From NCBI RefSeq assembly GCF_016026235.1, contig NZ_CP065613.1: a stretch of DNA of 64,000 nucleotides. One strand, given 5' to 3'. The DNA comes from Escherichia coli. Lineage in GTDB: Bacteria; Pseudomonadota; Gammaproteobacteria; Enterobacterales; Enterobacteriaceae. The position numbers and the translations under genes were made by a program. Below are positions 3,881-59,170 of this stretch, one piece after another; positions within the stretch are counted from its first letter, which is position 1; the number at the start of each line of letters is the position of its first letter. Below the pieces are notes generated by a model. That model saw only the letters and a list, made by a program, of their open reading frames with translations, was not told where the DNA came from and ran no database searches.

Positions 3881-3966
3881 GCCTGATGCGACGCTTACGC
3901 GTCTTATCATGCCTACGGCTCATGGGCGAAATGTAGGCCGGATAAGGCGTTCACGCCGCATCCGGC
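3881..3966. repeat. REP pair (BIME) in the yaiL-frmB intergenic region
   Basis: GCCTGATGCGACGC...GTCTTATCATGCCTAC and GTAGGCCGGATAAGGCG...CGCCGCATCCGGC palindromes read directly. Confidence 0.8.
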
Positions 3967-16324: not shown

Positions 16325-17148
16325 GTGTGCTCATTAATGAAAAACTGCATTCGCGGCGGCTGAAATGGCGCTGGCCGCTCTCGCGTCAGGTGACCTTAAG
16401 CATTGGCACGTTAGCGGTTTTACTCACTGTATGGTGGACGGTGGCGGCGCCGCAACTGATTAGCCCGCTGTTTTTGCCGCCGCCGCAACAAGTACTGGCA
16501 AAACTGCTCACCATTGCCGGACCGCAGGGATTTATGGACGCCACGCTGTGGCAGCATCTGGCAGCCAGCCTGACGCGCATTGTGCTGGCGCTACTCGCGG
16601 CGGTGTTGATCGGCATTCCGGTCGGGATCGCCATGGGGCTAAGCCCGACGGTGCGCGGCATTCTGGATCCGGTAATCGAACTTTATCGTCCGGTGCCGCC
16701 GCTGGCTTATTTACCACTGATGGTGATCTGGTTTGGTATTGGCGAAACCTCGAAGATCTTACTGATCTATTTAGCGATTTTTGCGCCGGTGGCGATGTCG
16801 GCGCTGGCAGGGGTGAAAAGCGCGCAGCAGGTTCGCATTCGTGCCGCCCAGTCGCTGGGTGCCAGCCGTGCGCAGGTGCTGTGGTTTGTCATTTTGCCCG
16901 GCGCGCTGCCGGAAATCCTCACCGGATTACGCATTGGTCTGGGGGTGGGCTGGTCTACCCTGGTAGCGGCGGAGCTGATTGCCGCGACGCGCGGTTTAGG
17001 ATTTATGGTTCAGTCAGCGGGTGAATTTCTCGCGACTGACGTGGTGCTGGCGGGGATCGCGGTGATTGCGATTATCGCCTTTCTTTTAGAACTGGGTTTG
17101 CGCGCGTTACAGCGCCGACTGACGCCCTGGCATGGAGAAGTACAATGA
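16321..17148 (+). CDS. tauC: taurine ABC transporter permease
   Basis: 275-aa hydrophobic ORF; 4-nt overlap with tauB and with tauD. Confidence 0.95.
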
Positions 17149-17996
17149 GTGAACGTCTGAGCATTACCCCGCTGGGGCCGTATATTGGCGCACAAATTTC
17201 GGGTGCCGACCTGACGCGCCCGTTAAGCGATAATCAGTTTGAACAGCTTTACCATGCGGTGCTGCGCCATCAGGTGGTGTTTCTGCGCGATCAAGCTATT
17301 ACACCGCTGCAGCAACGCGCGCTGGCCCAGCGTTTTGGCGAACTGCATATTCACCCTGTTTACCCTCATGCCGAAGGGGTTGACGAGATCATCGTGCTGG
17401 ATACCCATAACGATAATCCGCCAGATAACGACAACTGGCATACCGATGTGACATTTATTGAAACGCCACCCGCAGGGGCGATTCTGGCAGCGAAAGAGTT
17501 ACCTTCGACCGGCGGCGATACGCTCTGGACCAGCGGTATTGCGGCCTATGAGGCGCTCTCTGTTCCCTTCCGCCAACTGCTGAGCGGGCTGCGTGCGGAG
17601 CATGATTTTCGTAAATCGTTCCCGGAATACAAATACCGCAAAACAGAGGAGGAACATCAACCCTGGCGCGAGGCGGTCGCGAAAAACCCGCCGTTGCTAC
17701 ATCCGGTGGTGCGAACGCATCCGGTGAGCGGTAAACAGGCGCTGTTTGTGAATGAAGGCTTTACTACGCGAATTGTTGATGTGAGCGAGAAAGAGAGCGA
17801 AGCCTTGTTAAGTTTTTTGTTTGCCCATATCACCAAACCGGAGTTTCAGGTGCGCTGGCGCTGGCAACCAAATGATATTGCGATTTGGGATAACCGCGTG
17901 ACCCAGCACTATGCCAATGCCGATTACCTGCCACAGCGACGGATTATGCATCGGGCGACGATTCTTGGGGATAAACCGTTTTATCGGGCGGGGTAA
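17145..17996 (+). CDS. tauD: taurine dioxygenase (alpha-ketoglutarate dependent)
   Basis: 283 aa; TauD/TfdA family sequence (HTDVTF motif). Confidence 0.95.
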
Positions 17997-18000
17997 TACG

Positions 18001-18180
18001 AGAGTGGACGGTCCCCTTGAGCGGCGAAAGAACGTTGATATAGATGAAGCGAGTGCGGACGGTCCACTCAAGCGGCGAAAGAACGGTGATATAGATGAAA
18101 CGAGTGCGGACGGTCCCCTCGCCCCCTTGGGGTTAGGGTGAGGGGGAGTTCACTGTACTTTCAATAGGTTAACTCCCCCC
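18001..18180. repeat. two tandem ~49-bp repeat units plus a truncated third copy running into a G/C-rich hairpin (GGGGGAGTT...AACTCCCCC)
   Basis: Direct reading of the tauD-hemB intergenic sequence; unit GAGTG(C)GGACGGTCC...AGCGGCGAAAGAAC(G/T)GTGATATAGATGAA; repeat class not identified. Confidence 0.6.
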
Positions 18181-18199
18181 ATCGGAAGGCGTAAAAGTA

Positions 18200-19174
18200 T
18201 TAACGCAGAATCTTCTTCTCAGCCAGATCCAGCGCAAAGTAGCTGAAAATCAGATCCGCACCTGCACGCTTAATCGAACCTAAGCTTTCGAGCACCACTT
18301 TCTCTTCATCTATAGCACCCGCCAGCGCGGCGAACTTAATCATCGCGTACTCACCGCTCACCTGATACGCGCCAATCGGCAATTCAGTACGTTCACGCAG
18401 CTCACGCACGATGTCGAGGTACGCTCCAGCAGGTTTAACCATCAGGCAGTCTGCGCCCTGGGCTTCATCCAGCAGTGACTCACGAATCGCCTCACGACGG
18501 TTCATTGGGTTCATCTGATAGCTTTTGCGGTCGCCTTTTAATGCGCTTCCGGCAGCTTCACGGAACGGGCCATAAAAGGAGGAGGCGAACTTGGTCGAAT
18601 ACGACATAATCGCCGTATCTTTAAAGCCCGCAGCGTCCAGCGCCTGGCGAATTGCCTGTACCTGGCCGTCCATCGCGGCGGAAGGGGCGATGAAGTCTGC
18701 GCCTGCAGCAGCTGCAACCACGGCTTGCTTGCCTAAATTTTCCAGAGTCGCGTCGTTGTCGACGCCATGCTCGCACAGCACACCGCAGTGACCGTGAGAA
18801 GTGTATTCACAGAAACAAGTGTCTGACATGACGATCATTTCTGGCACAGTCTGCTTGCAGATGCGCGACATACGCGCCACCAGTCCATCTTCCCGCCAGG
18901 CGTCGCTGCCGGTTTCATCGGTATGGTGAGAGATGCCGAAAGTCATCACGGAACGAATACCGGCGTTGGCGATGCGTTCAATTTCGCGTGCCAGATGTTT
19001 CTCTGGAATGCGCATCACGCCTGGCATGGCTTCAACGGCTTTGTAGTCGTCAATTTCTTCTTCAACAAAGATCGGCAACACCAGGTCGTTAAGGCTAAGT
19101 GTTGTCTCTTCAAACATAGCGCGCAGCGCAGGAGATTTGCGCAGGCGACGAGGGCGTTGGATTAAGTCTGTCAT
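18200..19174 (-). CDS. hemB: porphobilinogen synthase (delta-aminolevulinate dehydratase)
   Basis: ORF 18200..19207; ATG at 19174 ([13 protein letters not shown]...) gives 324 aa as expected for HemB. Confidence 0.95.
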
Positions 19175-19699: not shown

Positions 19700-22645
<2,946 letters not shown>

Positions 22646-37148: not shown

Positions 37149-37259
37149 AAACAATGACACAACGTCCATGGAGCAAGTTACAGCATAAAACGCATAATAT
37201 TGCTGCGCTAAAAATTATTGCCCGCCGTAGCGAATAATTATATGCCTGGTGTGGCTTCG

Positions 37260-37297
37260 TACGCCGGATAAGACGCGGCAGGCGTCGCATCCGGCAT
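37260..37297. repeat. single REP element
   Basis: GCCGGATAAGACGCGGCAGGCGTCGCATCCGGC palindrome. Confidence 0.7.
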
Positions 37298-39283: not shown

Positions 39284-39374
39284 TGCCTGATGCGACGCTT
39301 GCCGCGTCTTATCAGGCCTACAAAATGTGCCAGAACCGCGTAGGGCGGATAAGGCGTTCACGCCGCATCCGGCA
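39284..39374. repeat. REP pair (BIME) in the mak-araJ intergenic region
   Basis: GCCTGATGCGACGCTTGCCGCGTCTTATCAGGCCTAC ... GGGCGGATAAGGCGTTCACGCCGCATCCGGC. Confidence 0.8.
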
Positions 39375-59068: not shown

Positions 59069-59170
59069 TGCCTGATGCGCTACGCTTATCAGGCCTACGT
59101 TATTTCAGCAATATATTGAATTTACGTGCTTTTGTGGGCCGGACAAAGCGTTTACGCCGCATCCGGCATG
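59069..59170. repeat. two REP elements (BIME-like) in the yajD-tsx intergenic region
   Basis: GCCTGATGCGCTACGCTTATCAGGCCTAC and GCCGGACAAAGCGTTTACGCCGCATCCGGC palindromes. Confidence 0.8.

Follow-up and report, generated by a model that had tools for sequence, protein, structure and literature searches.

What is the repeated and G/C-rich sequence that separates the convergent genes tauD and hemB in this Escherichia coli genome, and does it belong to an element family that already carries a name? The gap lies in a 64,000-nucleotide stretch of contig NZ_CP065613.1 (assembly GCF_016026235.1), which is referred to here as the window and to which all positions refer unless K-12 coordinates are given. 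An initial annotation, made from the letters of the sequence, described two direct repeats of about 49 bp, a truncated third copy and a G/C-rich hairpin, could not assign them to a named class, and suggested that they might constitute a bidirectional terminator, a different small repetitive element family or a structured RNA.

The gap and its 51-bp tandem array

The proposed setting between convergent tauD and hemB was borne out by the RefSeq annotation of the near-identical strain FDAARGOS_943, in which both genes are 100% identical to those of the window, where they are separated by 203 bp (Table 1). Downstream of hemB, a 974-amino-acid open reading frame (19700-22624) represents the counterpart of the EhaB/YaiT autotransporter; RefSeq marks the corresponding gene of FDAARGOS_943 as broken and the matched region there contains an IS2, while yaiT is a pseudogene in K-12.

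The initial annotation also noted that the sequence does not match the REP consensus, and a search of the 64-kb window for the REP consensus (..CTTATCMGGCCTAC tail) agreed with this, yielding 15 REP tails of which none falls between 17997 and 18199. They occur singly or in pairs (3903-3946, 37259-37272, 39308-39353 and 59085-59098), together with a BIME-like REP array at 1494-1911 that has a period of about 101 bp and nine REP tails of alternating orientation. There is a general resemblance, in that REP and BIME elements are also short palindromic repeats of E. coli 3' untranslated regions, where they frequently separate convergent genes and can form tandem arrays. However, the gap sequence belongs to a different sequence family and lacks both the REP consensus and inverted REP pairs.

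The repeats themselves form one array. TRF placed it at 17998-18120, with a period of 51 bp, 2.4 copies, 87% matches, no indels and a score of 197, such that the gap contains head-to-tail copies of a single unit, as in a VNTR or minisatellite. A repeat search gave two full copies, at 17999-18049 and 18050-18100, with 86% identity, and a 20-nt head that recurs at 17998, 18049 and 18100 with a spacing of 51 bp; over the 64 kb of the window the head pattern has just these three matches, where chance would give 0.02. The direct repeats reported initially are these units minus their first two bases, and what was described as a truncated third copy corresponds to the head at 18100-18119. Following each of the first two heads is a 31-nt body, (C/T)(G/A)AGCGGCGAAAGAACGNTGATATAGATGAA, and the two bodies of the window differ at 4 of 31 positions, which argues that the two-unit state is not a fresh duplication. 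Unit 2 is missing in the closest complete genome.

Table 1. Features of the tauD-hemB gap and its flanking genes, in window coordinates
Feature	Position	Strand	Description	Basis
tauD	17145..17996	+	taurine dioxygenase	ORF list; RefSeq annotation of FDAARGOS_943
tauD stop codon	17994-17996	+	TAA; end of the upstream convergent gene	
Tandem unit 1	17998..18048	+	head ACGAGAGTGGACGGTCCCCT (17998-18017), a 20-nt copy of the BoxC 5' arm by alignment, then 31-nt locus-specific body	TRF, repeat search, allele alignment
Tandem unit 2	18049..18099	+	head GCGAGTGCGGACGGTCCACT (18049-18068), then 31-nt body	TRF, repeat search, allele alignment
Third head	18100..18119	+	native BoxC 5' arm; 4-nt overlap with core	
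Degenerate BoxC/TMECO core	18116..18146	+	CCCTCGCCCCCTTGGGG(6 bp deleted)TTAGGGTGAGGGGG	consensus regex, allele alignment, Holder 2015 Table 1 no. 5
Imperfect hairpin	18142..18179	.	GGGGGAGTT / AACTCCCCC	repeat search, folds
Haplotype-specific tail	18180..18199	.	CATCGGAAGGCGTAAAAGTA	allele alignment
hemB stop codon	18200-18202	-	complement of these positions; end of the downstream convergent gene	
hemB	18200..19174	-	porphobilinogen synthase	RefSeq annotation, identical gene in FDAARGOS_943

A BoxC element with a damaged core

BoxC, also named PIT, TMECO or HPGQ (HPG1 class), is a G/C-rich intergenic repeat dispersed in E. coli and other enterobacteria. In K-12 MG1655 the tauD-hemB gap measures 106 bp and reads TAA-T-ACGAGAGTGGACGGTC-CCCTCGCCCCCTTGGGGAGAGGGTTAGGGTGAGGGG-GCGTTCACC..., and the 36-mer CCCTCGCCCCCTTGGGGAGAGGGTTAGGGTGAGGGG is listed as TMECO no. 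5 in Table 1 of Holder 2015 (PMC4666352), at 388,664-388,699 on the plus strand, in a paper which equates TMECO with the element formerly named BoxC, or PIT by Maher and colleagues. The same site appears as HPGQ 13, between tauD and hemB with a midpoint at 388,688, in Kaplan 2016 (PMC5100583), where it was read as a possible G-quadruplex/hairpin/duplex switch. Earlier BoxC and PIT studies, as cited through Holder 2015 (PMC4666352), are those of Bachellier and colleagues in the 1990s and of Hoyne and Maher in 2000-2002. The gap and flanking genes of the window are the same as those of TMECO no. 5 and HPGQ 13, and on this comparison of sequences its G/C-rich end is identified as the ortholog of this single element (BoxC = PIT = TMECO no. 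5 = HPGQ 13).

The diagnostic part, which the first reading of the sequence overlooked, is a second G/C palindrome, CCCTCGCCCC...GGGTGAGGG, at 18116-18144 between the third head and the hairpin. The window copy has the position of TMECO no. 5 and HPGQ 13 and the same 5' arm, C block, TTA loop (type A) and last G block; moreover, it is intergenic and its locus varies between strains, as has been reported for the family. It differs from BoxC in that the middle GGGAGAGGG block is absent and in that the 5' arm has been copied twice upstream in the tandem array.

That BoxC constitutes a dispersed family follows from a 78-nt K-12 query, which matched 5425 of 5426 complete E. coli genomes at a median of 18 and a maximum of 34 places per genome, and the copy between tauD and hemB is the sole one in the 64 kb of the window. 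The initial suggestion of a different small repetitive element family is thus sustained for the 3' part of the sequence and for the 20-nt heads, which are BoxC/PIT/TMECO, and fails for the 51-bp unit as a whole, the 31-nt body of which is confined to the tauD-hemB gap.

The extent of the family resemblance also explains the third head. An arm with the pattern ..ACG.GC.CG.ACGGTC belongs to the 56-bp BoxC unit and was found directly 5' of CCCTCGCCCC in all 10 of the K-12 type-A BoxC copies examined. When these 10 copies, all from K-12 loci other than tauD-hemB, were aligned with their flanks, conservation reached some 20 nt leftward from the core, with the arm consensus ..aAacG.GC.CGaaCGGTC. Since family conservation runs this far, the truncated third copy is the native BoxC arm, and in the window it occurs as ACGAGTGCGGACGGTC at 18100-18115, directly before the C block. 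The head of each tandem unit, ACGAGTGCGGACGGTCCCCT, corresponds to this arm plus the opening bases of the C block, and units 1 and 2 thus each open with an additional BoxC 5' arm.

The core has been damaged. Relative to K-12, six bases, AGAGGG, are absent between GGG runs and with them the middle G block, leaving the C block and one G block. A regular-expression search of the window for the three-block consensus, CCCTCNCCC-N3-6-GGGNGAGGG-N3-GGGNGAGGG, consequently found the two-block form alone, at 18116-18144, because the 6-bp deletion took the middle G block. All three blocks are present in the orthologous copies of K-12, GE3, TB06052 and PE164, those of GE3 and PE164 having one substitution in the C block. 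In Escherichia sp. E1V33 the core carries a different 6-bp deletion by which the third G block was lost, and when aligned the two deletions are independent hits on the G blocks within the same haplotype family. Such degenerate, or mutated, motifs are common at variable TMECO loci, and TMECO loci are more variable than control intergenic sites (Holder 2015, PMC4666352). The window copy is a BoxC member by orthology, degenerate and outside the sequence definition of the family.

By sequence rules, with one G block free for Hoogsteen pairing and three G3+ tracts only, the window copy would be unable to form either the published three-block intrastrand triplex or a four-tract G-quadruplex. A hairpin of CCCTCGCCC with GGGTGAGGG is still possible, and centroid structures of the DNA folds show part only of it.

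In Enterobacter, Leclercia, Silvania, Kluyvera sichuanensis and Pseudocitrobacter, too, BoxC elements immediately follow tauD, in many cases as inverted pairs of type A and type B, and at most of these loci a search of the next 400 bp downstream did not reveal the hemB stop-codon motif. Citrobacter carries REP-like palindromes after tauD instead of BoxC.

The locus-specific body and the alleles of the gap

The 31-nt body lies outside the BoxC family. It was detected in 238 of 5426 complete E. coli genomes, at one place in each, and at every one of these loci that was read the site was the tauD-hemB gap. Among metagenomes, 12 contigs carry the body and in 12 of 12 it directly follows the tauD stop codon as a one-unit allele, with the hemB end visible in 11 and the twelfth stretch stopping short of it; these contigs yielded no new contexts and no higher copy numbers. 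Plasmid and phage collections gave no matches to the tandem array or the body. The collection scans for the body relied on an exact match to a degenerate pattern, such that diverged copies in other genera could escape them.

The idea that the body is a decayed BoxC core was considered and rejected, as global, local and transition-tolerant alignments of body to core were no better than those of shuffled sequences (1096, 4503 and 1628 of 5000 shuffles, respectively, scored at least as high as the real sequence).

Alleles of the gap were retrieved with a 601-nt query that spans both gene ends, and representative alleles were read. A 39-bp gap of unrelated sequence, with a simple hairpin ATGCCGGGTT-N4-AACCCGGCAT, occurs in about one third of the genomes (approximately 1,830 of 5,424 records, or 34%) and the 106-bp K-12 type, consisting of an arm and BoxC with no full unit, in about 62%, both percentages being estimates from query coverage after subtraction of the 238 body-bearing genomes. 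Gaps of 156-158 bp, with one full unit and BoxC, make up part of those 238 genomes (4.4%), among which is also FDAARGOS_943 with a 152-bp gap that contains one full unit and BoxC with the 6-bp deletion. The 203-bp gap of the window carries two full units and BoxC with the 6-bp deletion.

No second full unit was found in any of the 5426 complete E. coli genomes, and the best match to a body-head-body query always consisted of two overlapping pieces spanning 67-71 bp of the record. Two full units were found in the window and in Escherichia sp. E1V33 alone, a separate species representative in the genome collection, the gap of which is also 203 bp and the tauD of which shows 94.6% DNA identity to that of the window. 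The tail CATCGGAAGGCGTAAAAGTA is common to E1V33, PE164 and strain 100181, while that of K-12 differs and starts with TTTCT.

Comparison of the alleles suggests how they are related. Removal of unit 2 from the window allele gives that of FDAARGOS_943, the junction falling within identical heads. The PE164 allele differs from that of the window in lacking the unit 2 body and the third head; its distinctive CCACTC head of unit 2 abuts an intact core, a sign that contraction occurred a second time and independently. The K-12 allele looks like a full contraction to the unit 1 arm and the core. We infer that the array is old and has mainly been shrinking by recombination or slippage between arms, and unequal exchange between alleles could rebuild longer arrays.

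Other changes at the site are of a different kind. The 39-bp class, exemplified by E. coli MS7163, represents replacement of the entire gap and not insertion of an element, and near-identical gap forms of 39-40 bp occur in E. albertii and E. whittamii. In E. coli OkiPb01697 a larger rearrangement has affected the same site, the 3' ends of tauD and hemB both being truncated with about 830 bp of other sequence between them.

Copy number thus differs between strains at one locus, and the array resembles the VNTRs used in MLVA typing in that it is non-coding, consists of units some tens of bp long arranged head to tail, and varies in copy number among close relatives. It differs from them in that the copy range is very small (0, 1 or 2), with the two-unit state rare (0 of 5426 complete genomes), and in that the unit borrows one arm of a dispersed repeat. 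The divergence of the units to 86% identity also implies a turnover that is slow in comparison with that of typing VNTRs. A literature search found no published description of a tandem array or VNTR between tauD and hemB. Arm-based tandem arrays were sought at 10 other K-12 BoxC loci, with one partial case found at yjdP-phnP, and partial tandem duplication beside BoxC is therefore not unique to tauD-hemB. The yjdP-phnP gap has a full BoxC and, 63 nt upstream of it and equally oriented, a hairpin-only BoxC-like sequence, CCCCTCACCCCAATGGGGAGAGGG.

The hairpin, transcription and competing explanations

The G/C hairpin noted initially is real. Its arms, GGGGGAGTT at 18142-18150 and AACTCCCCC at 18171-18179, are 20 nt apart, and in the repeat search they extend to 12 nt with 92% complementarity and 14 nt between them; an inner helix, CTGT / ATAG, has a 7-nt loop, and the whole structure overlaps the last G run of BoxC. 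It is present in every BoxC-bearing allele of the locus examined, and the K-12 version pairs less well than that of the window haplotype. When pairs were counted across 7 alleles, 92% of the cells were paired and no pairs had changed on both sides.

We consider, with a probability of about 0.8, that the gap combines a known BoxC element, a VNTR restricted to this locus and a conserved hairpin, and that it represents an ordinary unstable intergenic spot rather than a new RNA or terminator. The first part is the BoxC ortholog of TMECO no. 5, from which a slippage-type deletion of 6 bp between GGG runs has removed the middle G block. The second is a locus-only minisatellite in which each unit consists of a copy of the 20-nt BoxC 5' arm and the 31-nt body, and the length of which would change by recombination or replication slippage between the repeated arms, a mechanism deduced from the observed alleles with 0, 1 and 2 units. 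The third is the conserved imperfect hairpin that overlaps the last BoxC G run. Most likely, the array has no dedicated function and is a concrete case of the published instability of BoxC/TMECO loci. Two observations fit less easily with this explanation. E. coli and E1V33 have fairly similar bodies, a conservation that could mean constraint and not recent common ancestry, and the retention of the hairpin in 7 of 7 alleles is compatible with a role at an RNA 3' end.

The gap is the shared 3' untranslated region of the tauD and hemB transcripts. The tau operon is induced by sulfate starvation. The transcript data available are for the K-12 allele, with 0 full units, on standard media, where the tau operon was probably unexpressed, and under these conditions K-12 Term-seq provided no curated 3' end within 388,400-388,799, whereas a minus-strand Rho termination region was listed antisense to tauD, at 388,499 (Adams 2021, PMC7815308). 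This position is 254 nt beyond the stop codon of hemB (388,753), some 150 nt after the gap has ended, and is equivalent to approximately 17849 in the window. The data suggest that hemB-strand transcription in K-12 crosses the gap and that Rho ends it inside antisense tauD.

It is possible, if on balance doubtful, that the gap acts as a Rho-loading (rut) region for hemB, in which a long C-rich, G-poor 3' untranslated region made up by the BoxC and the repeats would recruit Rho and stop read-through before it crosses tauD, with more units providing a longer loading site. Between 18169 and 17936 the minus-strand RNA is rich in C and poor in G (C/G ratio 1.5-2.1) and has 15-21 YC dinucleotides in each 78-nt window. 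A Rho loading region would be expected to have such a composition, and Rho loading may thus be aided by the hemB-strand transcript of the window gap. The K-12 Rho termination region on the minus strand (Adams 2021, PMC7815308) and the lack of an intrinsic terminator in the gap by consensus scan are consistent with such a role. However, that same region is present in K-12 with 0 full units, and the units are therefore not needed for it; about one third of E. coli have the 39-bp gap without any of the sequence, and the RNA is predicted to be fairly structured, which would be unfavourable. Rho loading would in any case be compatible, as a secondary role, with the preferred explanation of a BoxC element beside a locus-only array.

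A bidirectional intrinsic terminator, in which both convergent transcripts would end at the 18142-18179 hairpin, alone or together with that of BoxC, appears improbable, and this suggestion of the initial annotation found no support. The G/C-rich 9-bp stem with its inner helix and the location between convergent genes would suit a terminator, and on the tauD strand of K-12 TTTCT comes after the hairpin. Nevertheless, a consensus scan of both strands of the gap detected no hairpin with a T-run behind it, the stem in the window being followed by CATCGG on the plus strand and TCACCC on the minus strand. Moreover, no K-12 Term-seq 3' end falls in the gap and the Rho region lies beyond it. PIT elements showed neither promoter nor terminator activity in work of the Maher laboratory, as summarised in Holder 2015 (PMC4666352).

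A more speculative proposal, to which we give little credence, is that the array is a trace of the way in which BoxC elements destabilise the sequence around them, that the BoxC 5' arm seeds minisatellites as a substrate for recombination or slippage, and that array length tunes the Rho-dependent termination of hemB read-through into antisense tauD. If this were true, copy number would be a selectable switch for interference between tauD and hemB.

It is very improbable that the near-palindromic heads, repeated every 51 bp or about five helical turns, constitute an array of sites for a dimeric DNA-binding protein. The regular spacing would fit, as would the near-palindrome of the unit 2 head (GAGTG-GAC-G-GTC-CACTC) and a 13-nt inverted repeat, with 92% complementarity, that joins the heads of units 1 and 2. 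Against this, the GGAC half is not conserved in other BoxC arms, where ..CGGTC alone is, the extended palindrome is confined to unit 2 of the window haplotype, and no convincing transcription-factor motif was reported at or near these elements in K-12 (Kaplan 2016, PMC5100583).

Least credible of all is the remaining suggestion of the initial annotation, that the repeats encode a structured RNA, whether small or cis-regulatory, since the somewhat low fold energies relative to shuffled sequences (z = -2.8 on the plus strand and -2.6 on the minus strand, within a modest range of -1.0 to -2.8 over DNA and RNA folds) are set against a search of Rfam 15 at a permissive E-value that gave chance-level matches only, to eukaryotic and archaeal families (the top one being eukaryotic mir-1275, with 20.3 bits against a gathering score of 71 and E = 0.16), a consensus scan that found no promoter-like site in 17500-18700, compensatory change in 0 pairs, a unit number that ranges from 0 to 2, and the absence of the sequence from about one third of E. 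coli and from E. albertii and E. whittamii.

The element itself is already known, and its locus is entered in two published tables (Holder 2015, PMC4666352; Kaplan 2016, PMC5100583), such that supplying the missing class name, BoxC/PIT/TMECO, is of little import beyond annotation. The small addition made here is a base-level example of the reported instability of BoxC loci, with an array built on the 5' arm of the element itself, putative contraction alleles in K-12 (0 full units) and in FDAARGOS_943 and PE164 (one unit each), and two independent 6-bp deletions with one G block lost in each. The locus may be of minor use in distinguishing strains, or for testing how BoxC promotes rearrangement.
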